Assembly: GCA_963844965.1 (NCBI GenBank)
Contig: CAWJQC010000004.1
Location: 41,609-105,608 of the forward strand
DNA length: 64,000 nucleotides
Source of the DNA: an uncultured bacterium
Lineage (GTDB): Bacteria > Patescibacteriota > Minisyncoccia > UBA6257 > 2-01-FULL-56-20
Direction: 5' to 3'
Both the position numbers and the translations under genes were made by a program. Under the pieces are notes generated by a model. The model saw nothing but the letters and a program-made list of their open reading frames with translations. It was not told the origin of the DNA and searched no databases. The stretch's first letter is position 1. Every line of letters starts with the position of its first letter. Shown here piece by piece: positions 1,490 through 56,305 of this stretch.

Positions 1490-1908
1490 TTTGTTGCTGG
1501 CAATCCGTAAGCCGGATTCTGTCGCGCCTGCCTGTCGGCAGACGATGCGATCATTTATCTGGGCCCTTGATTGCTCGCGGGCTCAAGCGGCACTTCCACC
1601 TCATCGGCGGACACGGCCTTGCACCCAGTAAGGATTTAGCCGTTTCATCTCCACTTTTTTATCCCTATGGCGGAGCTGGACCGACTAGCTTGGGATTGGG
1701 TCCGTCCGACTTTTTCAAATCGGACCGTTTCTGCTCGCACCTCTATTCTTACGAACGACGGCTGTTAGCCGCTACTATTTTATCCCTCCCCAGTTTTGCC
1801 AGTAATGTCACTGGCAAAACTGGGGAGGGATGGTGTCCGGACTTTCCTCCCTACATTTTCTAGAATTTTAAGAAAATGTAGGGCGATCGCCTAGATTGCC
1901 AGCTAACT
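1490..1908 (-). ncRNA. rnpB: RNase P RNA, bacterial type A
   Basis: Minus strand contains GGGAGGAAAGUCCGGACACC (P4 5' strand) and CGACAGAAUCCGGCUUACGG (ACAGAAnCCGGCUUA, P4 3' strand). P1 pairs GUUAGCUGGCAAUC with GGAUUGCCAGCAAC. P3 hairpin is CUACAUUUUC..GAAAAUGUAG. The overlapping plus ORFs 1276-1863 are spurious. Confidence 0.8.
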
Positions 1909-3595: not shown

Positions 3596-4545
3596 TTTAG
3601 CCTTTCAACAACTTCCATAGCGACCCTTCCAGCGTCTTCCTTACTTTTGAAGAAAGCACCCGCGGCGCCCTTGTGGCCGCCGCCGCCGTATTTTGCCATA
3701 AGTTCACCAGCATGAATTTTTGCCTCGCGCATTCGCCAGGGATTCGCTGAAAGCCCTACCTCAAAAAGGTTGTCGCTCCTTTGCAGGCGGACGGCATAGA
3801 TGGTCTTCGGATAAAGATAGTATGGCGCGAACCGCAGCTTGCCGCTACCTGCCAATGTCAGGTCTATAAATGTCGCCTTGCCGCGAACTTTTATGTTCTT
3901 CCGGTAAAATCTCAATCCCAATCTTATCTTTTTGCGCGCACCGGCTGCGCATTCCTGAACGCGCGGGTCTTTAGCTATTTCCCTGAGCGACTTCCGGGAA
4001 AGAAGGTCTATGAGCGGCCGGCGCGTGCTGTTATCATTGGCGTTCTTTTCAATGAAGGCGTCAATGCGGAGTGCCGGCTCCTTTACTTCAAGCGTCTGCT
4101 TGGCGGATCCATAACCCGCTCCGTCAATAATGTCCAGCCATTTCGTCAACTCCTTGAAGTGCTTGGGTGGTTTCCAGTCGAAACCGACGCGCAGTGACGC
4201 CTCGGTAAAATGGCACGCCGACTTATACGACGGATCGTAACGGCGGAACTTGGATGGTCTGAACTTTTTCCGCCAGCTTTCTTTCTGAAAAGCGGTCGGA
4301 TGGTGGTCAAACCAAAAAAAAGCCCCTGGGTGGTATTGGAAATCCAAAACGATGGCCGGATTGCGCCTGCCGCGGAAGAGTTTGTGCTTCAAAAAGAATT
4401 TTTCGTCCCGCCACTGCGGTAAAATATCAAAACCGAGAGGAACATAACGCTCAATATCGTCGCCGCGGTCGCGCAAAAATGCAAGCATCACCGCCGCTGA
4501 CGCCCATCCGTCAAAATCGTTGTGAAAATAGACGTCGTAAGTCAT
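3592..4545 (-). CDS. DHH/DHHA1 phosphoesterase, NrnA-like nanoRNase/pAp phosphatase
   Basis: Motifs HNDFDGWASAAV (DHH motif I), WFDHHP, and YGGGGHKGAAG (DHHA1 GGGH motif). Confidence 0.7.
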   Translation of the reverse strand: MTYDVYFHNDFDGWASAAVMLAFLRDRGDDIERYVPLGFDILPQWRDEKFFLKHKLFRGRRNPAIVLDFQYHPGAFFWFDHHPTAFQKESWRKKFRPSKFRRYDPSYKSACHFTEASLRVGFDWKPPKHFKELTKWLDIIDGAGYGSAKQTLEVKEPALRIDAFIEKNANDNSTRRPLIDLLSRKSLREIAKDPRVQECAAGARKKIRLGLRFYRKNIKVRGKATFIDLTLAGSGKLRFAPYYLYPKTIYAVRLQRSDNLFEVGLSANPWRMREAKIHAGELMAKYGGGGHKGAAGAFFKSKEDAGRVAMEVVERLK

Positions 4546-5864: not shown

Positions 5865-6128
5865 TTACAGGTGTTTATAGCTGCCATCTTCTGGTGCCCA
5901 AGACTCAAACAATTTCTTTAAGTCCTCTATGATTCCCACCTCCCACTCCATAATAACAAGCGCTGCAGTCGTTCCAAAAACGAATATGTGCGCGATTCCG
6001 TCCGAGAGGCCGGATTGCTTGACCACCGCAGCAACCCGATCGGTGATGTTTATAAAATCGTAGTGACCTTTTGTTTTGACGGAAAGGATCATCGCCATAT
6101 TATCTCGAAAGTTGCGGGTGGGGTGCAA
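5865..6128 (-). pseudogene. YjbQ/UPF0047 family gene remnant (N-terminal 87 aa only), next to the IS3 right end
   Basis: MAMILSVKTKGHYDFINITDRV...HIFVFGTTAALVIMEWE...PEDGSYKHL matches the YjbQ N-terminal two-thirds. A stop sits 13 bp from the IS end, and the about 50 aa C-terminus (AHLKASLLG...GTWQ) is missing. Confidence 0.55.
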
Positions 6129-6442
6129 ACGATTCTACCGCAAACTGGTTTTTTTTGCGGTTTTGACATGTCCATGTTTCCCAACTCTATCACTTTAATT
6201 CTATCAGAACAGAGAAAATTATATGCATCTCGGTCTGTCCGATACTAAAACTAGGTGCGGGGAGTAGTGGACGACGTTAGAACCTGTTTGATGGAAAATG
6301 CCAGCAAATTCAGTATCCCGAGTCTTGTGAGTTAGGTTCCCCCACCCTATCACCCACCATATCTACTCCGGTGGTTGGACGACATAAGGGCCTGTAAAAA
6401 AACCGAACATTCTTATCGCGATCAGCTTTGAGAAATTAACTT

Positions 6443-7907: not shown

Positions 7908-8027
7908 GGAATCAGAAAGTAGAAGGTAGAAAATAGAATTTAGAACATAGAACTGAGGGCGCGGAGAGAACAATCCTCAAAATTCCACACAGGAAATCTT
8001 AGCAGAAAACCGGTTTTCGCGCAAATC

Positions 8028-9822
8028 TTAAACGGTCCCTCGGGGTGACGCGCGGAACGCAGCCTCAACATCCAGGTCCTCCCAGCCGGCTTTCTTCAAT
8101 TCGCCGCGAATCACGTCGTCCACAAACGCGGCGGCGCGGGCGGCCCTGATATATTCCACGAGCTCCGGATTCTGGGAACCGGCTTGGGTTGATTTCACTT
8201 CCGCGGCCGGAGAAGCGGCGGTTGCGGCGTCCGCGCTAACTTGCCGCGCGGCTTCAGGGTTCGCCGCTGAAGCCGCTGAATTGTTTTTCTCCGCTTCTTC
8301 CCGCGTCGCCTCATGTTTTATAAGTTCTTTCTCTTCCGTCTCCAGCTTCACTATTTCCTCCTCCTCTTTTTTCATCCGCTTGCGAAGCATGACTACGACA
8401 AACGCCGCTATTATCAGAACCAACACTCCGCCGCCCGCGATAAGCCACGCGGTGAGTCCGACTCCGCTCAGCCGCTCCTTTATGACATCCCATGGCGTAT
8501 CAAGCGACCCGCCCGCGGCGATAAGCGCCGCGCACTGCTCTATATACGGGTCAGCGTATTTGTTTACGGAGAATTTCGCGTCGGAATTCTCGGCTATCTT
8601 GAATTGCTCCGTCGCTTTCTTGCACTGCTTGGCGTGCAGAAGCGCGAGACCCTGTTCCATTGAATCGGTGAAGCCGCTTGTATCGTTTTTCAGCGACTGT
8701 GCGTCAAGCGCGGCTTTCGCCAGTTCAACCGGAACGGCGGATGCGAAATTATCCCCTAAAATGTCGCTGAGCCCCGATTCAAATGTCACCAAACCAATGA
8801 CCTCTCCGTCAGCTCCGAAGAGCGGCCCTCCGCTTGAACCTTCGGAGATCTTCGCGTCCGATTGCAATATTTTGAAATCCTTATTTTGGGAATCTTTGAT
8901 GGCGGTTATCACTCCCTGTGTGAACGTCGGCTCAAGATAATCTTGCGACCCGATACTGGGCCGTACCCGGAAAGCCAAACACGTAAATTTTCTGGCCGAC
9001 AGCGGCCAACGCCGAAGCGCCGAGCTTCATGGCCGCGAGGTTACTTTCGCCAATCTTAAGAATAGCGACGTCCTTGTCGTCAAGGTTGTAGTTATCATTC
9101 ACGCTCAAAACCGTTGCCGGAAACGAATCTTTGATAAGTTCGGTGAGTTTTTGTTTCGTTGATGTCGGATTCAGCACGACGACCTCCCGCAAGATGTCAA
9201 AGCGGCTGTTGGCTTCCAGGGCGGATAAAATTTTCTTTCCATATTCTTCTCCCATGCTTTCCGCATCCAGCGAGTCAATCCCTTTATCTTTATAATACTT
9301 TTCCAAGTCCTGTATTTCATTCGGTTTCAAGGAGAACATTTCTTTGAATATCACCGACGTCATAGCCGCGCCGAGTATCGCCTGCCGCATGGTCTCTTCC
9401 GAAACAACATGGGAGTTTGTGAGGACCAGGCCGGATGGATTCACGACGAAACCGCTGCCCGCGAGATACTGCTCCGTGGAAGTGCCGTTAACGGCGCCTG
9501 ATTTCGGAAACGACACGGCAAACGTTCGGAGGTCAATGCTAAAATCGGGCACCGTTGAGGTTACCAGGAAATGCGTGAGCACCCGAACAATGGACGGCTT
9601 CGTTATGTCCGCCAATTCCTCTTCGCTCATCGCGAGCGGCTGCGGCGTGGGCATGCTCCAAAGATCGGAGAGCGACGCCGTCCCCGATCTCCCACCGCCG
9701 GGCAAACTGCGGAGAGCAACGGCGCCCAAAAACGCCGTGCTCACAAAAAGCGCGACCAAAAACAAAAAGAGCGGTAGCCATATCCGTCCACCTTCCCTAC
9801 CGTTGCCGATAAATGGCATGTA
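8028..9822 (-). CDS. membrane-anchored trypsin-like (S1) serine protease with a C-terminal TM segment and acidic/Ala-rich tail; split by a frameshift near 8950
   Basis: The N-terminal ORF carries the catalytic His (VLTNSHVV) and Asp (DVAILKI). The second frame carries the Ser motif GSSGGPLF. The two ORFs overlap at 8932-8978. Confidence 0.6.
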
Positions 9823-10200: not shown

Positions 10201-10452
10201 CTAGGCGGCACCGGCCGTGTCGGATTTGTCCTTGCTTATGCCGAGCTTGTTCATTAAACCCTTTCTCGTTTTCTCCAGCTCGGGCAACAGCACTCGGTCC
10301 TCTACCGTAGAATTACCGGCTCCCATCCACATGTTCAATTCTGCAATCCGCTTCTCAAGATTCTTAAGCTCGGCTATATCGGCCTCGCGCCTTGCCATTT
10401 TTGCCTCATCCTCTAACCTTTTTTCTTTTCGTTCAAACCATCCCATAAACAA
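10201..10452 (-). CDS. small coiled-coil hypothetical protein (83 aa)
   Basis: ORF only; lies between the two Thr tRNAs. Confidence 0.3.
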   Translation of the reverse strand: MFMGWFERKEKRLEDEAKMARREADIAELKNLEKRIAELNMWMGAGNSTVEDRVLLPELEKTRKGLMNKLGISKDKSDTAGAA

Positions 10453-10540
10453 ATGTTAGCAAGCAAACGCCACAATATCAATATTTATGCCTACGCGTCT
10501 TATTTAAACCGAACTGTTTTACCCCACACTTTCCGCCGAA

Positions 10541-10577
10541 TGAGCCGAGGAGAGGAGTCGAACCTCCAACCTACGGT
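10541..10577 (-). other. tRNA 3' fragment (T arm plus acceptor 3' strand, discriminator U) abutting tRNA-Thr(TGT)
   Basis: Reads GUAGGUUGGAGGUUCGACUCCUCUCCUCGGCU. The T stem GGAGG/CCUCU and T loop UUCGACU are present, but the segment upstream is occupied by the Thr tRNA, so no anticodon arm exists. Confidence 0.5.
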
Positions 10578-10605
10578 TTATCCCGATTTTGCAAAATTTG
10601 CCTTG

Positions 10606-10677
10606 AGCCGGCGGTCGGATTTGAACCGACGACCTGCTGTTTACAAAACAGCTGCTCTGCCGCTGAGCTACGCCGGC
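10606..10677 (-). tRNA. tRNA-Thr (anticodon UGU)
   Basis: GCCGGCGUAGCUCAGCGGCAGAGCAGCUGUUUUGUAAACAGCAGGUCGUCGGUUCAAAUCCGACCGCCGGCU; anticodon loop UUUGUAA. Flanked by ATTTTGCAAAA direct repeats. Confidence 0.85.
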
Positions 10678-10794
10678 AATTTTTTTGCAAAATCGCGGAC
10701 TCGCGATATTGTAAGCAAATCGTAGATTTGCACAATATCGGAGCAAAACCGTTGCTCCCTGCCCCGCACCGAGCTTTGCTCTGGTGCGCGGGTG

Positions 10795-10812
10795 CCATTG
10801 AACTACCTCGAC
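10795..10812 (-). other. possible tRNA 5' fragment (acceptor 5' strand plus start of D arm) matching the 3' fragment at 10541-10577
   Basis: GUCGAGG UA GUUCAAUGG. The first 7 nt pair with CCUCGGC of the downstream fragment (one G-U). The D stem is never closed. Confidence 0.3.
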
Positions 10813-10912
10813 AAATATGCCTGAACCCAAAAATTATTCTAACAGAAAATTGAAAAATCGGCAATTTTCATCAAAAAAGCCCCGCGCTCGAAGCACGGGG
10901 CTACTCAAAATA

Positions 10913-46124: not shown

Positions 46125-46222
46125 AACAATAATATCCGAAAACCGCGGTCTTTGCCAATTAAGAAAAAACAAATTAAAATGAGCATGTCGCCCTCGTGGT
46201 GAAACTTGCCCTCCCACCTTTG

Positions 46223-46294
46223 TCCCTGTAGCTCAACGGATAGAGCGTGTGGCTTCGAACCACAAGGTTGCAGGTTCAAATCCTGCCAGGGACG
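46223..46294 (+). tRNA. tRNA-Arg (anticodon UCG), embedded between perfect 13 bp inverted repeats
   Basis: GUCCCUGUAGCUCAACGGAUAGAGCGUGUGGCUUCGAACCACAAGGUUGCAGGUUCAAAUCCUGCCAGGGACG. Flanks are CCCTCCCACCTTT / AAAGGTGGGAGGG. Confidence 0.85.
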
Positions 46295-46327
46295 CAAAGG
46301 TGGGAGGGTGAAGATATCATATGTGGC

Positions 46328-46375
46328 TTCGAACCACAGGTTCCAGGTTCGAGTCCTGGCGAGGGCACACACAAC
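46328..46375 (+). other. partial duplicate of the tRNA-Arg 3' half (anticodon arm through acceptor), att-like repeat
   Basis: UGUGGCUUCGAACCACAGGUUCCAGGUUCGAGUCCUGGCGAGGGCA lies 33 nt after the intact tRNA. Confidence 0.5.
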
Positions 46376-46464
46376 ATTTCGTATCGCGGCATCGTGGGGG
46401 CCGACGCTCTAGCGCGACCCCGAGAGGCCTACCGATACGGAATATCGTCCTCCTTATTTCTCTA

Positions 46465-46716
46465 TTAAGAGCCGGCAAAAATACTTTTGATAAGGCTTGT
46501 AATGCCGCCTGCTATCAGCACGATCACAAAACCGACTGCCGCATACGTAAGGGTCTTCTTCCCTTTCGAAAATTTTTCAGGATCGCCAGCCGCCGTCATC
46601 ATTTGAAACCCGCCGACAAGCACCATTATACTTGTGAGCGGCGCTGCAATATCGTAAAAAAGAAATCCCGCCACACTATTCGCGACGGACACCAAGCTGC
46701 CCCCCCATTCGTACAA
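46465..46716 (-). CDS. small two-TM protein resembling TrbC/VirB2-type conjugative pilins
   Basis: LVSVANSVAGFLFYDIAAPLTSIMVLVGGFQMMTAAGDPEKFSKGKKTLTYAAVGFVIVLIAGGITSLIKSIF. The pattern matches VirB2/TrbC pilins by eye only. Confidence 0.35.
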   Translation of the reverse strand: MYEWGGSLVSVANSVAGFLFYDIAAPLTSIMVLVGGFQMMTAAGDPEKFSKGKKTLTYAAVGFVIVLIAGGITSLIKSIFAGS

Positions 46717-46883
46717 TTTGGATCGAACGGATTAAAAAGTTGGTTGGGAGGGCACGCGGCAAAAGCTAACTTCGCGACGGTTAAGGCGCTGACTGTTATT
46801 AAAATCTTTGTTGTGCGGCGGATAATATGCATATGGATTATTATAGCATACGAGATAGCGTGGCAGAAGCCCATTTTGTTTAG

Positions 46884-48278
46884 CTATTTCTGCAAGCTCA
46901 GAATTTTATTCCTGAACGTCAACTTACTCTTGAAGCAAGATAGCAATTCGCGTTTCTCGACCGTGCTGCCCTTTTTGAGAAGATATTTTGCGTACGTTTT
47001 AAGGTCAATTTCTTTAGTGGCCGCTTTCGATCCTTCTCCCAAGACATCGTTCGCGAATTTGCGATATCGTTCCATCTCGTCTTCGAATTTCTTCTGCATC
47101 CCAATCTCACTGATATCCATCTCGTCAATGATAGCGAGAAGTTGAGCGATCAATTCCTCTTCGCGAATGTATCCGCACTTGCAATCCTTATCTTTCGAGC
47201 GTGAGCATCCATAGTACACGTACCGCGCCGTCGTTCCATCCTTGTGCGCCTTATATTTCTCGCACGCACTGATGCCCGATCCGCATAGGCCGCACGAGAT
47301 CAGTTTCGTAAACGAAAATTCCTTTATCTCCGACCTGATGACAAAATCTCGGTGCAGCTGCTCCTGTACTTTATCGAACAGCTCCCGCGAAATGATTGCT
47401 TCGTGCTTGCCGCTGTACCAGTTACCGCTCTTCAGTGGATACTCAAAGATGCCGCAGTAAAATGGATTTTTGAGGATGATATAAATATTGGATAACGAAA
47501 GCACTTTCCCATTCTTTGTTCTGAATTTGATTTCCGACTTCAGCCAATGATAAAGCTTCCGGCCCGACCATTGTTCGTCGGCGACTTTCTGGAGCATTTG
47601 CTTGATGACGGGCGCTCGCAGGGGATCAATGATAACTTCACAAGGACGGTCGGTGCTCTTCTCGTTAAGATACCCTGTCGGTGCGATAGACGGACGCAAA
47701 CCTTGTTCGCACCGCATCCGTAATCCGCGCTTCACGTTTTCCGATTTGTTATCATTCTCAAGTTTCGCTTGGCTGCACAAAATCATCAACATGAATTTCT
47801 CGCTCGGCGAGTTCGTGAATTTCTGGCTGAAGGTTCTGATCTCGATAAGTAATTTTTGATCCATCAAGTCCACCAAGCCGCCAAGGTCGCCCGCGTTGCG
47901 GCTCAAGCGATCCGGCGCCCATGTAAGGATACCGTTGAATTCGCCGGAACGAATATCAATAAGCAACTCGTTAAAAATTTTTCGCTGGCCGACAGCTTTT
48001 GCGGAATGGCTTTCCTTTCTAACTTCGGCGATCTCAAGGTTATCGCGCTCGGCGATTTTCAGCATCTCCTTTATCTGACTATCAATGGAAAGCACTTGCT
48101 GTTCCTCGCTCTCCGTACTTTTCCTCGCATAGAGGCAGTATTTTATTTTTATCGCTTCGGCCTTTGTCGCAGAAACGCCCGACTGATCCCAGCCCTTTGG
48201 TATATTTGTTATTTTCTCCATACCTAAGGGATGCCGCAACGGCGGAAGGAGTCCAGAGCATCCTTGTCGGTAACTCAA
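46884..48278 (-). CDS. large serine recombinase (integrase)
   Basis: N-terminal resolvase domain with YARKSTESEEQ (catalytic Ser), recombinase domain, Zn-ribbon CGLCG..C and coiled-coil C-terminus. Confidence 0.8.
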   Translation of the reverse strand: MSYRQGCSGLLPPLRHPLGMEKITNIPKGWDQSGVSATKAEAIKIKYCLYARKSTESEEQQVLSIDSQIKEMLKIAERDNLEIAEVRKESHSAKAVGQRKIFNELLIDIRSGEFNGILTWAPDRLSRNAGDLGGLVDLMDQKLLIEIRTFSQKFTNSPSEKFMLMILCSQAKLENDNKSENVKRGLRMRCEQGLRPSIAPTGYLNEKSTDRPCEVIIDPLRAPVIKQMLQKVADEQWSGRKLYHWLKSEIKFRTKNGKVLSLSNIYIILKNPFYCGIFEYPLKSGNWYSGKHEAIISRELFDKVQEQLHRDFVIRSEIKEFSFTKLISCGLCGSGISACEKYKAHKDGTTARYVYYGCSRSKDKDCKCGYIREEELIAQLLAIIDEMDISEIGMQKKFEDEMERYRKFANDVLGEGSKAATKEIDLKTYAKYLLKKGSTVEKRELLSCFKSKLTFRNKILSLQK

Positions 48279-48377
48279 AACTCGATATCAGGCGACGAAG
48301 GGGCAAAGAAGGCAAGCAGAGTGATTTCCCCAGCCACCCTCTTTAAGACCATTTATAAACGAGCTATAATAATTCTA

Positions 48378-49343
48378 ATGTTCAGTACCAATGCGCGACG
48401 GGTAATGTGTGTCGTTGCAGGTTTGATTTTGACTTCGCTCGCTTGGATCGGATGCGCGAATTATTTCAACTGGTACGCCGACACAATCGGTCCCGTGGCC
48501 TGGTTTGGCACCCTGTTCCTATTTGCCGCAGCAGGAGTCGGCGCCGGTCTGCTCTTCGAAAAATCGACCAGGGCTCATTATCAGTCTGCAATGACGGCAA
48601 ATCCCCAACTTAAGGAACGAATGGAAACTACTCTCGGAAGGCGCCTCAAGTTTGGCTACGTGCTTGCCGGGCTTTATGTCGCCTATAGGCTTTTCGGATA
48701 TTATCTGTTTTTTGTTCTCGGCTTCTCTTTATCTCCAGCGGCCCATCTTCAACTGATTCTTTCGGCGGTCGTTGAGGCGGTTGTCGCCTTAGTGTGTTTG
48801 TTGCTTTATTGGGAGCGCGGAGAAGATGCCAGTACGGCGAATATAAAAAAGCATTTGCTTGTCTATGTTATTTTCTTCTTCGTTCTCGCAGTGGTTGACG
48901 GTGTCGCACTGCTTGTCTTGAAGCCCGCTTCGGCGGTAGTTCAAACACCCGCAACTCTCGAATCCGCGCTCGAAGCATTTTCCGCCGAGGAATTTTCCGG
49001 GGCAGCAGCAAAAGGGGCGCAAGCGCTACAAGTAAAAGATATGGTCGGGATAGCTTCGGCGCTCCAGAAGATCAATGCTCATTTTAACCAATCATTAACC
49101 AGCGCGGATCTTTATGACATGCGGTACACCATTAATTGGGGCTTGAATGAAGCAATTGCATATTACCAATTCGAGGCCGACGATCAATCCATTTACGCTC
49201 TTCAGCTTACCGAAAATCTTGCGACCAGCAATATTGCCGAGAGTTATTATTCGTTTCCGGCAGGTAGCACCTCCGCTCTAACCGGACAGAGGTATCTCTT
49301 CGTGGCAAACGGATTCAAACGCGGCCGAAACTTTGTTCCTTGA
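48378..49343 (+). CDS. hypothetical polytopic membrane protein
   Basis: Four or more TM helices followed by a soluble C-terminal domain; no family. Confidence 0.4.
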   Translation: MFSTNARRVMCVVAGLILTSLAWIGCANYFNWYADTIGPVAWFGTLFLFAAAGVGAGLLFEKSTRAHYQSAMTANPQLKERMETTLGRRLKFGYVLAGLYVAYRLFGYYLFFVLGFSLSPAAHLQLILSAVVEAVVALVCLLLYWERGEDASTANIKKHLLVYVIFFFVLAVVDGVALLVLKPASAVVQTPATLESALEAFSAEEFSGAAAKGAQALQVKDMVGIASALQKINAHFNQSLTSADLYDMRYTINWGLNEAIAYYQFEADDQSIYALQLTENLATSNIAESYYSFPAGSTSALTGQRYLFVANGFKRGRNFVP

Positions 49344-49522
49344 TACTGCAGGTGCTTATCTCAACCTACCTATGCAATCTCCGATTATGAACGAAGACCT
49401 TTATTATCCTTTAACGGCATCTGCTCCTTCGTGGACAGTGTCCGTCCTCTTTACGAGCACTACGGAGGAGGGACAACAGCAAGTTCACGCTCTATAATAC
49501 CTTTGACGCGAATACCGAGCGG

Positions 49523-49918
49523 GTGACGACGAGTACTTACGTTCCCTCCGGAAACTATTTGCCCTTGTCACCACAATCGCCATCCGTGTCGATGAACGTT
49601 GCTCCGCCTCCCTCAAATTCCTCCCTGAAAATAATTTCTCCTGCCAACGGACAGAAATTGAAGCAGGGGTCAACATACACGATTAGCTGGCAGTCGTCTG
49701 GTGATTTCAATTTTGTCGTCGGGAATATCGTCGCTCCCGTTCCGGGCGAAGGGGGTGTAGGAATATTCCAAGCCCCCGCGACTTCAAGCCGCTATAGCTG
49801 GACCGTGCCGACCGGCTTCCCACCTGGGATGTATAAACTGGGGCTTGCGGGCAGCGATCAAGATTTTGTGAATCATAATTTTGCCTCGTCCAGTGTTTCA
49901 ATCTACATCATTCCGTAG
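49523..49918 (+). CDS. Ser/Thr-rich beta-sandwich (Kre9/KNH-like) surface domain protein
   Basis: ISPANGQKLKQGSTYTISWQSSG ... YSWTVPTGFPPGMYKLGL pattern. Confidence 0.35.
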   Translation: MTTSTYVPSGNYLPLSPQSPSVSMNVAPPPSNSSLKIISPANGQKLKQGSTYTISWQSSGDFNFVVGNIVAPVPGEGGVGIFQAPATSSRYSWTVPTGFPPGMYKLGLAGSDQDFVNHNFASSSVSIYIIP

Positions 49919-49959
49919 TAAAACTTATTTAAGATGAGACGCGGCCTTGGGACACCCTT

Positions 49960-50420
49960 TTAGTGCCTCATTTGTCTCATTTGCATAAAAAAGCCTTATT
50001 TTATGGGCATCGATTTTTCGGAATGAGACACTGCTTTGTATAAATCGGACACGTCCAGAATGGCATTTCTGTGTCCGATTTGTCCGATTTGCCTCCAAAA
50101 TGTTACACACCACAAAGTGCAAAAGTTGTGTAACATTTGTAACATTTTGAGGAAAAGCGGGGGGTTGGAACATGGGAATGGGACACGAAAAATCGACCTC
50201 TTGTGTCCCATTTGTTCCATTTTGTAGAAATGAGCCCTGCTGCGTTACGTTTGCCGCGTTACATTCCGAACGCTCAGAAATCTTTGATTTATCTACCTAA
50301 CAGGACAGCTCCCCAAAAAAGTGCCGCCCTCTCAACTTTTCACATCGCGTTACATTTGTTACATGTTACATTTGATCCCTCCGAAAACCGCGACCGTGAG
50401 CCTTCCAAGGGAAATTTGGG
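49960..50420. repeat. iteron-like direct and inverted repeat field
   Basis: Repeated GGGACAC(N)..TGTCNNATTTG units (49997, 50080-50100 tandem TGTCCGATTTGTCCGATTTG, 50200-50225). Also GTTACATTTGTTACATGTTACATTTG, TGTAACATTTGTAACATTTTG and GCGTTACGTTTGCCGCGTTACATTCC. Confidence 0.5.
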
Positions 50421-50580
50421 GTCGTCCTCAAAAACCCTTATACTGATTGCACAGGGAAAGTCCGCATCCGCGAGGGGGCACAACAAAACTATATCTTTTT
50501 AGTTACCGCACGGTTGTCGTCGAGACGCGTGAAAAACAAAAAAGGAGCTTGCAGAGCTCCTCTATCTAACTCAACCTAAC

Positions 50581-51300
50581 TCAACGGGATGCGGCGGAAA
50601 CATGGGACAGCACGTCCGCAATGGCGTTCACGAGAACTCTTAATCCGTCTCTCCGGTAGAAAATTTCCTCACCGTCTGCCGGTCCGAAGCGATCAATGTG
50701 GCGGTGAGATTTTTTCCTTATGAAACGACTGTTCGAAAGAGCGTGTAAGTTTACCCTTATGTTCTCAATCATTTTCTCGTGATAAGGGTTCTCCCTGCCA
50801 TGCCATTGCTCACAAAGGGCAATCTCGCCTTCGGCGGTCGTAAAAAACAACGACCGAAGGAAGTAATTAAAGTGACGCTCAACGGCAGTCTCAACCAATC
50901 TTTGCAACTCCGGCCCGCTTTTCGCGCTTCCCAAGACCGGTATCGCCGAGATATCGTTACCATACTTCTTTTTGGCCAAGTGGTCCCAGGCATAACCAAG
51001 AGCGATGAGCCAACGTTTGCCGTGGACGGTGGCAAGGAACACGTCGCCGTACTTCATATATAACCTTTCCGAATTATTGCCGTTGACGGCATGGTCGTCA
51101 ACGATCGCGTAGACAGATGACGGAATGGGCAACTCGATTTTCCTACGGGGACGCAATCTATAATCATCCCAAAGTCCGTGAAATACCCCGTAGGTAAGTT
51201 CCTCAGGCGTAATCAACCGCCTGAACGGATGGACAATAGAACGAAGAGCACCGTGCTTTCCTTCCAGCACTTCCTTCAGGCGTTTTCTAAAAATTTTCAT
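50581..51300 (-). CDS. hypothetical protein (about 240-274 aa)
   Basis: ORF only. Confidence 0.35.
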   Translation of the reverse strand: MKIFRKRLKEVLEGKHGALRSIVHPFRRLITPEELTYGVFHGLWDDYRLRPRRKIELPIPSSVYAIVDDHAVNGNNSERLYMKYGDVFLATVHGKRWLIALGYAWDHLAKKKYGNDISAIPVLGSAKSGPELQRLVETAVERHFNYFLRSLFFTTAEGEIALCEQWHGRENPYHEKMIENIRVNLHALSNSRFIRKKSHRHIDRFGPADGEEIFYRRDGLRVLVNAIADVLSHVSAASR

Positions 51301-51628
51301 CCGACCCCCAATCAAAAGATTTTCACTCAAACAACTGCAAGCAGTATAACGAAATTTTTTGAATTTGGCAAATTTGATATTTTTCGCCGCAGAAGCCAAC
51401 GCCACTTCTCGGCCATAAAAATATCCGCAAACGGCAACCGTTTGCGGATTTCAACTTATCGCGACGCACTCTCAACGCACCTCACGCACAAAACACGCAC
51501 CTGCCGCCAAGGAATCTCGCCCTCAGCGGCGAGAAGAAAATCTCCGGCCAATATAAAGCCCATGGATTCAAGAATTCGCGCGCGGCATTTGCAACAATTC
51601 ACTTTCACGCCGACCTTCCTTAGAATTT

Positions 51629-52648
51629 TCAATCGCGCCTCTTCAAAACAGGCGGCTGCTCCTCGCCCTTATTACCTTTATTCTCGCCGCCCTGCTGTGT
51701 CTGGTCGGTCGGCTCGCGCTTCTTAAGCGTCGGCTTTCCTTCGGTTACTTTCCTTCTGCTCGTCACAATTTGCAGCCGATCTTTCACGTCATCAAACTCG
51801 GATGTAGACACGAGATACTGGTCCTTTTTCGGAAGAATTTCCTTAATCTCCTTCTCTATTTTTATAATCCTGTCACCAGTTGGCGGATGGTCGGCAAAAA
51901 CGTTTGGCACGCTTCCGGGTATTCGCCTTTCTTCTTCAATAACCTTGGAAAACATACCTACGTAGGACTCCGGGTCGTAGCCCGCCTTATACATGTACTG
52001 CAATCCCAGATAGTCCGCCTCGGCCTCGTCGTTGCGGCTGAATTTTAAAAACGCAATAGGTATGCCAAAGTTCATGGCCTCCATAGTCGCAATGTAAACA
52101 GGATAAGACATGGGTACGAAGATAAGAGGAATTGTGGCGTATTGGAGGAGCGTGGCTTTTGTCATCTGCGACGCCCAATGCCGGCACGCAACGTGCGCAA
52201 TCTCGTGCGCCATCACTCCGGCAACCTGACTTTCTCCATCGGCAACAAGAAGCAGGCCAGAATTAATATACAAGAACCCGCCAGGGAGAGCGAAGGCGTT
52301 GATTCCGGGCGCATCTATAACTTTCACCGTAAGAGGAACTTTCAGGTCCGAATTCCGCGCAATGTTCTGAGCGACGCGGTTGACATACTCGCCCACCACA
52401 GGGTCGGTCAAAAGTTTCGCCGATTTCTCAACTTCGGTGGAGTATTGTTTCCCGATGGCAATCTCTTTTTCAATGGAAATTATTGACTTGTGCGCGACCT
52501 TGCGGTTGCCGATTTCTTCGGGGTTGTCTTTGCTCTTCTGTCCGTCCGCCGAAGCGCCATAAGCCCTGGGAGGGCACGCCATAATGGCCAAAAGGATAGC
52601 AAGAATAATTACAAGAATCAGGTATCGTTTCTTGACCGTACCGCTCAT
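51629..52648 (-). CDS. M48 family zinc metallopeptidase (BepA/YcaL-like), secreted or membrane-anchored
   Basis: HEIAHVACRH (HExxH), GINAFALPGGFLYINSGLL; N-terminal signal/TM. Confidence 0.7.
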   Translation of the reverse strand: MSGTVKKRYLILVIILAILLAIMACPPRAYGASADGQKSKDNPEEIGNRKVAHKSIISIEKEIAIGKQYSTEVEKSAKLLTDPVVGEYVNRVAQNIARNSDLKVPLTVKVIDAPGINAFALPGGFLYINSGLLLVADGESQVAGVMAHEIAHVACRHWASQMTKATLLQYATIPLIFVPMSYPVYIATMEAMNFGIPIAFLKFSRNDEAEADYLGLQYMYKAGYDPESYVGMFSKVIEEERRIPGSVPNVFADHPPTGDRIIKIEKEIKEILPKKDQYLVSTSEFDDVKDRLQIVTSRRKVTEGKPTLKKREPTDQTQQGGENKGNKGEEQPPVLKRRD

Positions 52649-52881
52649 AAGCCACCTCCTTTTCCAGATTCAACCAACTGCTTCCACTCTACCAAAAAGC
52701 GGGAAAAAATCCAGAACCTGTCCAAGTCGTTGCGGAAAGACGTTTTTGGATATAAAATAATAAAACCGGCCGCGAAGCCCGACATAATCAGCGCCATTCG
52801 GCTTAATAAAAATCCGCCCATAGCTCCCACCTTCGCCGAGGCTTCGGCGGGCAAGCAACTGGCCCCGCACCAAAATTTATC

Positions 52882-52954
52882 CGCGCGTAGCTCAACTGGC
52901 AGAGCAGCTCCCTCTTAAGGAGACGGTTGCAGGTTCGACTCCTGCCGCGCGGAC
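52882..52954 (+). tRNA. tRNA-Lys (anticodon CUU)
   Basis: CCGCGCGUAGCUCAACUGGCAGAGCAGCUCCCUCUUAAGGAGACGGUUGCAGGUUCGACUCCUGCCGCGCGGA; anticodon loop CUCUUAA. Confidence 0.8.
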
Positions 52955-53084
52955 TGGAAAAATTAAGGATAAATTTGGTGCGGGTTAGACGCCGCAGCTC
53001 TCCTCTTACAACCGCGTAGCGAGGCGAGGATAAAAATCGCCAATTTTTATTTTCGCCGAGCGAGCGGGTGGCGAAACAGGTTTT

Positions 53085-53125
53085 CGCAGGAAAAGGTTCC
53101 AGGTTCAAGTCCCTGCTTGCCAGCA
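53085..53125 (+). other. tRNA T-arm-like repeat matching the fragment at 46328-46375 (candidate att core)
   Basis: AAAGGTTCCAGGTTCAAGTCCCTGCTTGCCAG versus ACAGGTTCCAGGTTCGAGTCCTGGCGAGGGCA (21/23 identities in the core). Confidence 0.4.
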
Positions 53126-53623
53126 GGCAGGCAGGTGGGCGGACACAGAATCGAGGATCTCCGGCAGCTCACCTCTTTTTTATTGACAACACACACGTTA
53201 TTTTTTAATCTAAACAGTAGCGTCTGTTAAAAATTAAAAATCGGGAGCGGCAATGTATAGTCTGTTTGGAAGATTCGAGCGGATAGGCGAAGCGAAATAT
53301 TCCGCCGAGGAAATCTGTCTTTTCCGGTTAATCGACCTTCTATTACATCGCGGATGGAGATTCCTGGGATGCCTGTGGAACGGCAAAAAATATAAGATAA
53401 AAATAAAAAATCTCCGCACCGGCAAAAAACGCTCTTTCAAATCAGGACGCCCATATTGGCTCTCAAGCGATGCCGACGGAAATTTATTCTAACCCCACCG
53501 AATGAACAGGTGGGTTTTTGTTTTGGGGTAAATTTGGTATAATATGTGCGCGATGTGCTTGGCTCATATTGGGAAAACGTGGCGCCGGACACCGAACAAA
53601 TTCCGTTCTATGTATAAATCATT

Positions 53624-56305
53624 ATGAGTGGGATAAAAATAAATCTTTCTCTCAGCGAAATCCCAGGCATCGGCCCGCGTTTTCTGGAACGGCTGGGAAA
53701 ACTCGGCATAAAAACCGTCCGTGATCTCATTTATCATTTTCCGGCCCGCTACGAGGATTTCTCCCAGATATACAAAATTTCCGACGTTGAGCCGGGGGAA
53801 CAGGTAACAATACGTGGCGTTGTTGAAGACACCAAACTGCGGCGGACTTGGAGAAAACACATGACAATCGCCGAAGCCCTGATCCGCGACGATTCCGGAA
53901 CGATACGCGCCATCTGGTTCAACCAACCATATGTTTTGAACACTCTGCGGGTCGGGCGCACGGCGAATTTCGCAGGCAAAATATCCATATCGGACGAGGA
54001 CGAAATTTATTTGAGCCACCCGGCTTATGAAATCGTCGGCAGTCGGGAGTCGGGAACGGAGAAGCAAGAAACAAAACATACAGCGCGGCTCGTCCCCATT
54101 TATCCCGAAACGCGCGGCCTCACATCCAAGGGGTTGAGATATCTGATCCAGCCAATTCTGAAAAACAGCGAACAGCTGGAGGAATGGCTGCCGCCGGAAG
54201 TTCTGCGCGAAAATAATTTTCCCGAAATAAACCTTGCGCTCAGATCCATACACTTCCCCGAAAAAACCGAGGATGCTCTTGTCGCGAAAAAACGCTTCAC
54301 TTTTGAAAACCTGTTCCTGCTGCAACTCGCCAATCTTGAACAAAAATTGAAACTCGCGCGCGAAAAAGCGCCAGTGATCAAAACCGACATAGAACACCTG
54401 AAAAAAATGATCTCGGAACTGCCATACGAACTCACGTTTTCGCAAAAGAAATCATTGTGGGAAATCATCCAGGACCTCGCCAAAAAACAGCCGATGAACC
54501 GCCTGCTCCAGGGCGACGTGGGCTCCGGCAAGACGGTTGTCGCGGCGCTCGCCGCGGTAATTACCGCGGAAAACGGGCTGCAGACCGCGTTTATGGCGCC
54601 AACCGAGGTTCTCGCGAGACAGCATTTTGAAACATTGAAAAAATTATTCGCCGGAATTCCCTCGATCCATCAACCCGTAGTTGGGCTTCTCACGTCAAGC
54701 GAAGCAAAAATCCTCTACGCGACAGACCTTGAATCAAAAATCAAAAAACCGGAGTTGCAGGAAAAAATAAAAAACGGCGAGGTAAAAATAGCCATCGGCA
54801 CGCACGCTTTGATACAAAAAGACGTGGCGTTCGGCAATCTTGCCTTTATCATCATTGACGAACAGCATAGATTCGGCGTCTCACAACGAGCTGCGCTCGT
54901 TCGCGGACAGACGCAGAATGATAATACGCGGACAGACGCTGAACAACTACTATACGAAAAAACGACGTTTGAGATAAGAAAAAGTCTGTTTGAGGTGAGA
55001 AAACAACTGGGCCTTGGTCATAAAGAAGTGGTGTATCAGAAAGCATTGGAGGAGGAGTTCAAGAAATCCGGTGTAATATTTGAGAAAGAAAAGAAAATTC
55101 CTGTCGTTTATAACAAGAAAAAGATTGGCGTTTATCAACCGGATTTTGTCATAGATAATGAAGTAATTTTGGAACTTAAGGCTCTTCCCTTTATCGGCGG
55201 CATCGAAAAAAAACAGCTGTGGAATTATTTGAGGGGTTCGGATTACAAACTCGCGCTTATGGCAAACTTTGGACCGGAAAGATTATCCATAGAGCGGGTA
55301 GTATACGATATTGCGCGGAGTCGGCGGCTGTCAGCGTCCGGTCAGCAACTGTCCGCGCCTATCCCCCACCTCCTCTCAATGTCCGCCACGCCAATCCCAC
55401 GCACGCTCATGCTCACCGTCTTCGGCGATTTGGATATATCGCTCATCACCGAACTTCCCGCCGGCAGAAAAAATATCGTAACAAAAATAATCCCCCCACG
55501 GGGCAGGAGCGAAGCCTATGAATTCATCCGCGGCGAAGTGAGGGCCAGCCGGCAGGTTTTTGTCATCTGCCCCCGCATTGACAAACCGCAGACAGGCGCA
55601 GACCACACGCAGACAAACGCAGACAAGACACAGACAGACGCAGACAATTTTCAGCGGCTGTCTGCGTCAAGTCAGCGACTGTCCGCGTTAAGTCCACGTA
55701 AGTCCGCGTTAGTGTGGGAAGTAAGATCCGTGAAAGAAGAATTTGAAAAATTATCCAAGAAAATTTTTCCGGATTTGCGCGTCGCCATGCTCCACGGCCA
55801 GCTCAAGCCAAAAGAAAAAGCGGGTATCATGAAGGACTTCCGCAACTACAAAATAGATATTCTCGTTTCAACTTCCGTCGTGGAAGTTGGCGTGGACGTG
55901 CCGAACGCAACAATAATGATGATTGAAGGCGCCGATCGCTTCGGGCTGGCTCAGATCTACCAATTCCGCGGACGCGTGGGGCGCGGCGAACACCAATCCT
56001 ATTGCTTCCTGTTCACGGATTCGTCCGCCAAAACTACGCGCGAGCGGCTGCAGGCCGTCCTTGAAGCCAAGAACGGCTTTGAGCTCGCCGAGAAGGACCT
56101 GAAGATCCGCGGTCCCGGCGAATTCCTCGGCACGGCGCAGACCGGCTTTCCCGACACGGCGATGAGCGGCCTCATGAACCCGGAGCTCGTGAAAGCAAGC
56201 CGCGAAGCGGCGGCAAAAATCGTCCAAAAAGATCCGCTTTTCAAAAATTATCCGCTCCTGAAAACCAAATTAAACGAGTTCCGGAAGGAAATCCACTTGG
56301 AGTAG
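53624..56305 (+). CDS. recG: ATP-dependent DNA helicase RecG (893 aa) carrying two in-frame insertions
   Basis: Wedge/OB N-terminus; helicase motifs GSGKTVVA, IIIDEQHRFGV, SATPIPRTL, TSVVEVGVDVPNA, QFRGRVGRG; intact ORF. Confidence 0.85.
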   Translation: MSGIKINLSLSEIPGIGPRFLERLGKLGIKTVRDLIYHFPARYEDFSQIYKISDVEPGEQVTIRGVVEDTKLRRTWRKHMTIAEALIRDDSGTIRAIWFNQPYVLNTLRVGRTANFAGKISISDEDEIYLSHPAYEIVGSRESGTEKQETKHTARLVPIYPETRGLTSKGLRYLIQPILKNSEQLEEWLPPEVLRENNFPEINLALRSIHFPEKTEDALVAKKRFTFENLFLLQLANLEQKLKLAREKAPVIKTDIEHLKKMISELPYELTFSQKKSLWEIIQDLAKKQPMNRLLQGDVGSGKTVVAALAAVITAENGLQTAFMAPTEVLARQHFETLKKLFAGIPSIHQPVVGLLTSSEAKILYATDLESKIKKPELQEKIKNGEVKIAIGTHALIQKDVAFGNLAFIIIDEQHRFGVSQRAALVRGQTQNDNTRTDAEQLLYEKTTFEIRKSLFEVRKQLGLGHKEVVYQKALEEEFKKSGVIFEKEKKIPVVYNKKKIGVYQPDFVIDNEVILELKALPFIGGIEKKQLWNYLRGSDYKLALMANFGPERLSIERVVYDIARSRRLSASGQQLSAPIPHLLSMSATPIPRTLMLTVFGDLDISLITELPAGRKNIVTKIIPPRGRSEAYEFIRGEVRASRQVFVICPRIDKPQTGADHTQTNADKTQTDADNFQRLSASSQRLSALSPRKSALVWEVRSVKEEFEKLSKKIFPDLRVAMLHGQLKPKEKAGIMKDFRNYKIDILVSTSVVEVGVDVPNATIMMIEGADRFGLAQIYQFRGRVGRGEHQSYCFLFTDSSAKTTRERLQAVLEAKNGFELAEKDLKIRGPGEFLGTAQTGFPDTAMSGLMNPELVKASREAAAKIVQKDPLFKNYPLLKTKLNEFRKEIHLE
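54903..55357 (+). mobile_element. in-frame insertion inside recG encoding a GxxExxY-type PD-(D/E)xK domain, bounded by inverted repeats
   Basis: Left end is a tandem CGCGGACAGACGC (54903, 54927). Right end is GGCTGTCAGCGTCC...CAGCAACTGTCCGCG (55349-55357 is the reverse complement of CGCGGACAG). Encoded segment: GLGHKEVVYQKALEEEFKKSGVIFEKEKKIPVVYNKKKIGVYQPDFVIDNEVILELKA...LMANFGPERLSIERV. Confidence 0.5.
55588..55712 (+). mobile_element. second, cargo-less in-frame palindromic insertion of the same repeat family inside recG
   Basis: CAGACAGGCGCAGACC...GACAGACGCAGACAATTTTCAGCGGCTGTCTGCGTCAAGTCAGCGACTGTCCGCG. Translates as QTGADHTQTNADKTQTDADNFQRLSASSQRLSALSPRKS between conserved RecG blocks. 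Confidence 0.45.

Follow-up and report, generated by a model that had tools for sequence, protein, structure and literature searches.

A compact serine recombinase element predicted at the 3′ end of a tRNA-Arg gene, and nested tRNA genes, in a Patescibacteria genome

Only a small number of mobile elements have so far been delineated in the Candidate Phyla Radiation (CPR, Patescibacteria), and very few genetic tools exist for these bacteria. Here we analyse a 64,000-nucleotide (nt) stretch of DNA (the window), whose source is placed in the CPR by gene content and database matches, and describe a predicted integrative element of 4,114 bp (window positions 46369–50482) at the 3′ end of a native tRNA-Arg gene, together with nested tRNA genes at the same locus. 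tRNAs were called with ARAGORN and Rfam, and proteins were searched against Pfam, NCBIfam and PHROG. Upstream of the locus lie an M50 protease gene and rpsL/rpsG, downstream lies RecG, and the G+C content is flat over the whole region. An intact tRNA-Arg(tcg) gene (46222–46295, + strand; ARAGORN, and 74.5 bits against the Rfam tRNA model) stands at the left of the locus and an intact tRNA-Lys(ctt) gene (52881–52954, +; ARAGORN and Rfam) at its right; a partial tRNA match follows tRNA-Arg on its 3′ side (46307–46359; 30.2 bits, model positions 9–63), and the sequence GGTTCCAGGTTCRAGTCC is present twice, at 46339 and 53095. A preliminary description of this DNA had read everything from tRNA-Arg to tRNA-Lys as one integrated element bounded by T-arm-like direct repeats. 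The genes that it listed are all present according to open reading frames (ORFs) and Pfam (a large serine recombinase (LSR), a pilin-like protein, a membrane protein, a weak Kre9/Big_7 match, a hypothetical protein and an M48 peptidase), and an element does appear to lie at the tRNA-Arg 3′ end, but its right end is placed at 50482, not 53085.

The closest relatives of the locus among the comparison loci (labelled L001 and so on) are L183 and L184, in which M50, M48 and RecG are 66–84% identical to the proteins of the window; the best M50 identity in the collections searched is 71–73%, with no relative above 73%. In window orientation both loci read M50, tRNA-Arg(tcg), a short spacer, M48, tRNA-Lys(ctt) and RecG, the spacer between tRNA-Arg and M48 measuring 375 nt in L184 and approximately 670 nt in L183, and L184 has an orf79-like stretch before RecG. 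In more distant relatives tRNA-Arg and tRNA-Lys are only 62–130 nt apart. None of 80 M50-linked syntenic loci contains the recombinase, and no element occupies the same site in L183 or L184, relatives at genus or family distance only. The empty site that had been proposed as a check is thereby found in part: the tRNA-Arg of L183 is identical, the sequence after it differs, and L183 lacks the recombinase. Because M48, tRNA-Lys and orf79 are syntenic in both L183 and L184, we assign them to the chromosomal backbone, outside any element. The M48 gene (51629–52648, −) has 67–71% identical orthologues in the same place in both loci, and the hypothetical gene hyp274 (50581–51405, −), without a Pfam, PHROG or NCBIfam match and absent from L183 and L184, lies beyond 50482; neither can be kept among the genes of the element, where they had been placed.

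These comparisons also bear on the 6.9-kb integrated plasmid or mobilizable element first proposed, which would run from tRNA-Arg to the T-arm repeat at 53085–53125 and take in M48, hyp274 and tRNA-Lys. An 18/19 T-arm-like match at both ends, a recombinase at the left end and internal pilin-like and iteron-like features all suit such an element, but we regard it as highly improbable: M48, tRNA-Lys and orf79 form a syntenic backbone in L183 and L184 at 67–84% identity, pieces of the native L183 tRNA-Lys account for the right repeat at 100% identity, the conserved element ends at 50482, and neither Rep, relaxase nor secretion genes were found with Pfam, PHROG or NCBIfam. The recurring T-arm core is real, GGTTCCAGGTTCRAGTCC being found at 53095, but it is the T arm of the native tRNA-Lys and not an attachment repeat; judged by identity to L183, the supposed direct repeats belong to two separate native tRNAs, as the T arm of each. 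As a right attachment site the 53095 repeat was rejected, since no reconstruction gave a chromosomal site and the sequence is a relic of the native tRNA-Lys. Rejected as well was the T arm of the outer tRNA-Arg as an element-derived sequence or an Arg/Lys fusion crossover site, because the identical tRNA-Arg in recombinase-free L183 marks this T arm as native.

The ends of the element emerge from comparison with two other insertions. The L001 recombinase is 91% identical to that of the window and its locus lies between dnaJ and tRNA-Lys(ttt); the L003 recombinase is 84% identical and its locus follows tRNA-Lys(ctt), beside M50 and tRNA-Arg. At the DNA level the three copies have three blocks in common, with unrelated cargo in between in all three: block 1 (46339–46425), comprising the tRNA T arm, the acceptor and a 57-nt flank; block 2 (46912–48332), comprising the recombinase gene and 110 nt upstream of it; and the non-coding block 3 (49934–50482). 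The host-side arm of the left attachment site (attL) is a 3′ piece of the native tRNA-Arg (46313–46368, +; tRNA positions 18–73) that is identical to the L183 tRNA-Arg at 56/56 positions. The second 3′ half reported after tRNA-Arg is hence confirmed as a tRNA-like copy, but one that comes from this native gene and not from duplication of the intact one. Next to it lies a conserved element flank (46369–46432, +; ACACAACATTTCGTATCGC...GCGCGACC..GAGAG) with 86–88% identity to L001 and L003, and nhmmer additionally matches this flank in L005, L025 and L034. At the left end the window diverges from recombinase-free L183 directly after the tRNA sequence ...GGGCAC, and at the right end the conservation of block 3 ends exactly after CCGYGAGGGGGCAC; at either end conservation halts exactly at GCAC, and short direct repeats centred on GCAC are found at both. 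We place the element at 46369–50482 because the conserved blocks and these repeats delimit both ends. The repeats are 8–11 nt long in four insertions (GGGGGCACAC in L001, GGGGGCAC in L003, GGGGCACCAGC in L005 and GCACCAAAAA in L034), L008 has GGGGCA[C/T]AA with one mismatch, and the window has GCGAGGG and GCACA with a 2-nt indel between. A direct repeat of the tRNA end is thus seen at the far boundary in the window, L001, L003, L005, L008 and L034, and profile searches match the distal arm, that is block 3, in L005, L006, L008, L022 and L034 and weakly in L037 (E 0.3).

The recombinase (445 amino acids (aa); 46884–48221, −) matches the Pfam domains PF00239 (Resolvase, 70.4 bits), PF07508 (Recombinase, 54.7 bits) and PF13408 (Zn_ribbon, 32.8 bits) and the integrase family PHROG 95 (1.4e-64), and its nearest solved structure is SPbeta SprA, aligned over residues 33–393. 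The motifs YARKSTESEEQ and DRLSR are unchanged in 22 homologues. With three intact domains and its catalytic motifs it is predicted to be the integrase of the element, and the same role, proposed earlier, is borne out by Pfam, PHROG 95, SprA and the linkage to tRNAs. A 110-nt region 5′ of the gene (48222–48332, −) is shared with L001 and L003, and conservation ends near 48332. A database search gave at least 8,000 candidates, all with E ≤ 0.001; the best 120 of these span several CPR classes at 64–72% identity, except the source protein and two others (91% and 84%), whereas identity to the recombinases of annotated phages and plasmids never exceeds 30%. By sequence, then, the clade appears very large and very conserved within the CPR, and some genomes have two copies.

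A genome scan recovered 35 recombinase loci, and at 23 distinct genome loci a convergent tRNA on the opposite strand lies at most 1.3 kb past the stop codon of the recombinase gene, its 3′ end turned towards that gene, mostly at 110–215 nt and in some cases at approximately 750–1,250 nt. Five more loci have a T-arm relic at the position of the tRNA. A tRNA 3′ end or its relic stands beside the recombinase in approximately 28 of 33 chromosomal homologues, for a chance expectation of a nearby tRNA of approximately 6% per locus (from 180 tRNAs in 2.06 Mb). The adjoining tRNAs are of varied identity (Lys, Arg, Val, Leu, Gly, Trp, Met, Gln and Asn); almost every one of them has ...GCAC at its end with A or C as the next base, and the tRNA is intact beside most homologues. 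Upstream of the recombinase, the 35 loci contain neither long tRNA-fragment repeats nor orphan T-arm hairpins.

Could the recombinase instead be a CPR gene that was domesticated and passes down vertically, such as an invertase or resolvase with tRNAs nearby only by chance, and the extra DNA a product of ordinary rearrangement? The extreme conservation of the family across CPR classes, the flat G+C content and the lack of an excision product in viral contigs are what such a gene would lead one to expect, but recombinases with 84–91% identity are found beside different tRNAs and among different neighbours, conserved termini with direct repeats occur at both ends, and the recombinase is missing from the 80 syntenic loci. 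Moreover, these 84–91% identical recombinases occur in genomes whose housekeeping M50 proteins are approximately 52% identical and whose insertion loci differ, so that recombinase identity is far above M50 identity in the same genome pairs. We consider vertical inheritance unlikely, and the sequence data support horizontal spread of the recombinase family.

Small tRNA-end insertions and duplicated tRNAs were also seen at comparison loci. Downstream of tRNA-Arg in L183 (approximately 3715–3930) and downstream of tRNA-Lys in L184 (approximately 7975–8170) lie homologous mini-insertions of 175–190 nt, bounded by 17–23-nt direct repeats of the tRNA 3′ end, which look like non-autonomous tRNA-targeting elements. 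L005 (9464–9651) has two tRNA-Arg(ccg) copies beside the recombinase flank, 63 nt identical and 40 nt apart; the distal copy is intact and repeat-flanked and the proximal copy has a degenerate 5′ end.

Besides its conserved ends and the LSR with its 110 nt of upstream sequence, the element has two variable cargo slots. Slot 1 (46465–46716, −) encodes a VirB2-like pilin of 83 aa with two transmembrane (TM) segments, which matches PF18895 (T4SS_pilin) over the cut-off (44.7 bits, 1.4e-11) and NF045849 under it (34 bits); the pilin is absent from L003, and in L001 an unrelated 235-aa gene product without a hydrophobic segment takes its place. Slot 2 first encodes an apparent multi-pass membrane protein (48378–49343, +; 321 aa from Met50 of the ORF), with hydrophobic stretches read by eye from the translation, for which no Pfam, PHROG or NCBIfam family match and no homologue beside other LSRs was found. 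The profile searches suggested earlier for the small proteins therefore gave a family for the pilin but not for the membrane protein. It is followed by an Ig-like (Kre9/Big_7-like) protein of 131 aa (49523–49918, +) with weak Pfam matches under the cut-off. In L001 and L003 the slot beyond the recombinase holds other, unrelated proteins that are TM/membrane-anchored or Ser/Thr-rich. Searches of the element genes against Pfam, NCBIfam and PHROG found no relaxase, Rep protein, phage genes or secretion machinery, only the VirB2-like pilin, and the idea of an integrated plasmid or mobilizable element does not survive this result. Patescibacteria have an essential chromosomal type IV secretion system (T4SS) and several divergent VirB2-like pilins (PMC12857230). 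Compared with that system, the 83-aa cargo protein likewise matches T4SS_pilin, but its gene stands alone on a mobile element, and the surrounding DNA encodes no further part of a secretion system. Because Patescibacteria encode several VirB2-like pilins for the chromosomal T4SS (PMC12857230), the lone pilin as variable cargo is likely a variant subunit rather than a sign of a conjugative element.

The element might instead be a decayed prophage or satellite of which the integrase is the last remnant. A single-sequence scan of viral contigs gave no match, and a profile-based scan gave 64 loci: 64 IMG/VR contigs encode homologues at 44–68% identity (best-segment values), several of them near provirus ends that abut a tRNA, and the best PHROG match of the LSR is an integrase family. 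However, the integrase apart, the cargo of the window, L001 and L003 elements has no PHROG match, with no structural, packaging or lysis genes among it, and a size of 4–5 kb and a two-slot layout that are alike in three independent copies point to a complete small element, not random decay, which leaves viral decay a poor explanation. Five predicted viral contigs each encode two recombinase homologues (L123/L130, L127/L142, L154/L159, L160/L162 and L180/L181).

The distal arm (49934–50482, +), shared with L001 and L003, is approximately 550 nt of conserved non-coding DNA that ends in a mimic of the tRNA 3′ end, AGTCCGCATCCGCGAGGGGGCAC, at the right attachment site (attR). It corresponds to the iteron-like field of the preliminary description, whose place within the element is upheld by the conservation of block 3. 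Its modules comprise one inverted and two direct TGTNNCATTT sites, and GACCGTGAG motifs are also present; four pairs of 9-nt tandem repeats lie at 50072–50374, three of the pairs preceded by an inverted copy of the site, with the consensus TGTNNCATTT. This consensus has 13 matches in the whole window, seven of them within 400 nt of the distal arm, and the motif GACCGNGAG occurs three times in the rebuilt attachment site. More than 100 nt are conserved on each side of the junction, with repeated GACCGNGAG and TGTNNCATTT motifs, around junction repeats of 8–11 nt, where serine integrase sites usually measure approximately 50 bp. The tRNA-end-mimic motif has a second copy in the attL flank (GCATCGTGGGGGCC, 46390–46403, against GCATCCGCGAGGGGGCAC at the distal end, 50461–50481), and the motif would therefore be repeated inside the rebuilt attachment site. 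A structured RNA was considered for the distal arm and rejected, given that seven aligned copies have no conserved fold or covariation. The repeats are most likely protein-binding sites, putatively for an accessory or directionality protein; a replication origin is a conceivable alternative, although a Rep gene is absent.

Taken together, we put the probability at roughly 80% that window 46369–50482 is a compact element inserted by the LSR through site-specific recombination into the very 3′ terminus of the native tRNA-Arg(tcg) gene. At the level of sequence, the boundaries (from three independent insertions), the link between recombinase and tRNA 3′ end and the absence from the closest relatives are well established. 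The chromosomal site would consist of the T stem and the acceptor 3′ strand ending in ...GGGCAC, plus the trailer, and the element's own site, rebuilt by joining its two ends, would be the tRNA-end mimic AGTCCGCATCCGYGAGGGGGCAC followed by ACACAACATTTCGTATCG. Exchange at GCAC or directly behind it, a position that we infer from the sequences, would leave the tRNA unchanged and short direct repeats behind; such an exchange at the extreme 3′ end fits the intact tRNAs, since the tRNA stays unchanged beside most homologues. The excised circle is predicted to have the junction ...CCGCGAGGGGGCAC joined to ACACAACATTTCGTATCG, and the empty site ...GGCGAGGGCAC joined to AACAAAACTATATC.

Several points weigh against insertion by the LSR as described. 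The window junctions are known from the assembly only, and all comparison loci likewise come from metagenome assemblies. There is no strain-level empty site, the nearest relative having an M50 identity of 71–73%, and the circular junction proposed earlier as a check was not seen: the pattern of joined ends was searched in viral contigs only and none was found. The attL and attR repeats of the window differ by the 2-nt indel, many IMG/VR homologues have no nearby tRNA, and serine integrase sites do not typically have conserved arms that exceed 100 nt and contain iteron-like modules.

With known large serine integrases (SPbeta SprA, TP901-1 Int, SCCmec CcrA/B and XisF) the LSR shares the three-domain architecture and catalytic motifs, a gene at one end of the integrated DNA and short identity between the junctions, but its identity to recombinases of annotated phages or plasmids is 30% at most. 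Protein-coding or intergenic sites are the usual targets of characterised serine integrases, whereas the target here is a tRNA 3′ end and the element bears a tRNA-end mimic; the conserved arms are much longer than the typical 50-bp site, and the element is only 4–5 kb, without phage genes. Tyrosine-integrase islands at tRNAs (P4-like, and integrative and conjugative elements of the SLP1 or pSAM2 type (AICEs); PMC2440964) are similar in their insertion at a tRNA 3′ end without damage to the tRNA, in the integrase beside the tRNA and in direct repeats derived from the tRNA end. They differ in that the element here has a serine recombinase, shorter repeats (8–11 nt) and no conjugation or replication genes. 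No description of such elements was found in the literature on CPR serine recombinases. The sequences apparently represent a CPR-wide family, not yet described, of small elements whose serine recombinases target the 3′ ends of tRNAs. Such a family could explain the horizontal spread of surface proteins and pilin variants among CPR episymbionts, and it would offer candidate integrases with predictable, simple tRNA-end targets for the engineering of CPR bacteria.

The same locus holds a second phenomenon, the formation of nested tRNAs, which is separate from the LSR element. In the window tRNA-Arg, tRNA-Lys and tRNA-Thr(tgt) each appear, by sequence comparison, as a repeat-flanked replacement copy that entered the D arm of an older, now split copy of the same tRNA. 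At tRNA-Arg, a promoter-like site (TTGCCA-17-TAAAAT; 46152–46180, +; a consensus match only) lies just upstream of the 5′ piece of the native outer gene (46190–46204, +; positions 1–15), which is identical to the L183 tRNA-Arg at 15/15 positions, and probably drives the whole nested unit. The inserted unit (46209–46308, +) consists of a 14-nt repeat arm, the inner tRNA-Arg(tcg) and a second 14-nt arm; the inverted repeat (46209–46222 and 46295–46308) is perfect and abuts the tRNA, whereas shuffled flanks reach at most 8–10 nt. In-silico deletion of approximately 105 nt around the inner gene restores a complete tRNA-Arg(tcg) starting at 46190 (ARAGORN), and L183 carries the native gene uninterrupted. 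The two alleles differ, the inner acceptor being GTCCCTG/CAGGGAC and the outer GCCCTCG/CGAGGGC. The inner tRNA-Arg and its repeats form a 108-nt insertion in the D loop of the native gene, downstream of the native promoter-like site. The perfect inverted repeat around tRNA-Arg was reported correctly, but it is not peculiar to this gene, as tRNA-Lys and tRNA-Thr(tgt) have the like, and it does not mark the element. The inner tRNA-Arg ends in ...GGGACGC and lacks the ...GGGGCAC common to tRNAs beside the recombinase family, because of which this allele may be no target of the recombinase.

At tRNA-Lys the outer gene is more dispersed. Its 5′ piece (52813–52826, +) matches L183 at 14/14 positions, the first 13 nt of the tRNA-Lys and the preceding base, and is followed by the inner tRNA-Lys(ctt) unit (52864–52984, +; inverted-repeat arms 52864–52877 and 52971–52984), the native T arm (53095–53112, +; 18/18 identical to L183), a 21-nt insertion within the native 3′ pieces (53113–53133, +) and the native acceptor 3′ strand with its trailer (53134–53158, +; 25/25 identical to L183). 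The T arms of tRNA-Arg and tRNA-Lys in L183 differ by one base, and the relics in the window carry those sequences. A scan for a single deletion around tRNA-Lys restored no tRNA, because the outer gene has lost its anticodon arm. The 5′ fragment and its junction are also found in L055, and the spacer of approximately 105 nt between inner tRNA-Lys and relic (52990–53094) is conserved in L183 (approximately 1735–1845) with compensatory changes in two hairpins and may be a structured or tRNA-like RNA; from the part shared with L055 and the compensatory changes it follows that some of the nested architecture is old and perhaps functional. The nested tRNA-Thr(tgt) (approximately 10400–10820, −; inner gene 10605–10677; 5′ piece GTCGAGGTAGTTCAATGGCA, 3′ piece GGTTGGAGGTTCGACTCCTCTCCTCGGCTCA) is flanked by an inverted repeat of 13 nt in its leader and trailer, and every recombinase is far from it; the older pieces lie within approximately 140 nt on each side, and their acceptor strands pair with each other and not with the inner gene.

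Comparable arrangements recur elsewhere: a nested tRNA-Lys with a 17-nt repeat at the insert boundaries in L047, one with an 11-nt repeat in L183, a tRNA-Arg lodged in the split anticodon loop of an older tRNA-Arg in L183, a tRNA-Leu in L034 and, in part, L005 and L077. A generic detector of such relics proved too noisy in AT-rich flanks for a genome-wide rate. Two facts argue against k-mer chimeras: microhomology at the nested junctions is limited to 5–6 nt, and separate projects yielded the same arrangement. The inverted-repeat sequences are unrelated across eight cases and therefore do not represent one transposon family; a miniature inverted-repeat transposable element or an insertion sequence was rejected for the repeat-flanked tRNAs, as there is no common terminal repeat and a 6-nt duplication (GGTGAA) occurs only at tRNA-Arg. 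In five of seven measured cases the repeats abut the acceptor stem, and one repeat arm resembles the native leader or trailer. Archaeal split, permuted and intron-containing tRNA genes and the fragments left by integration are similar in the D-loop or anticodon-loop interruption and in a helix formed by the sequences that bound the insert. Here, however, the insert is a complete tRNA with the same anticodon, the lineage is bacterial, no Rfam intron family matches the nested tRNAs, and at least three outer genes (the window tRNA-Lys, L047 and L183) are visibly decayed, which is why they are not regarded as spliced genes; the outer tRNA-Arg would be intact if its insert were removed. The literature on repeat-flanked tRNAs yielded nothing relevant.

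A tentative proposal, which we hold to be possible but doubtful, is that CPR tRNA genes are renewed by a specific, undescribed process, and that the recombinase family may use a complex, iteron-bearing attachment site of several hundred nt, for which no characterised serine integrase would offer a parallel. A complete tRNA with the same anticodon, bounded by an inverted repeat apparently built from the resident leader or trailer, would enter the D loop or anticodon loop of the resident gene and take over its promoter, and the old halves would remain on either side. Repeats that abut the stem would result from fold-back (template-switch) DNA synthesis if the acceptor-stem palindrome served as primer; alternatively, the repeat could be a selected RNA processing stem. 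Both fail to account for the foreign allele inside a resident gene. If a dedicated mechanism exists, it would be a new route of tRNA gene turnover and may indicate a new kind of pre-tRNA processing signal, and the replacement events at this locus merit separate study. tRNA-Lys(ctt) is inverted relative to M50 and RecG in only two relatives (L183 1631–1704 and L047 6093–6165), both with inverted repeats (11 and 17 nt), which hints at a repeat-mediated inversion or at one process behind both features.

Two further observations concern other genes. The bacterial type A RNase P RNA of the window (1493–1902, −) scores 100.2 bits against a gathering score of 100, in keeping with a divergent CPR version. 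In the window RecG (53624–56305) a PD-(D/E)XK nuclease domain (PF13366) is inserted in frame between the helicase lobes at residues 447–558. The insertion is also present in the L184 orthologue (L184 5013–7628), L183 has a separate gene of the PF13366 family between rpsG and fusA (6055–6423), and the inserted domain looks like a mobile nuclease module.

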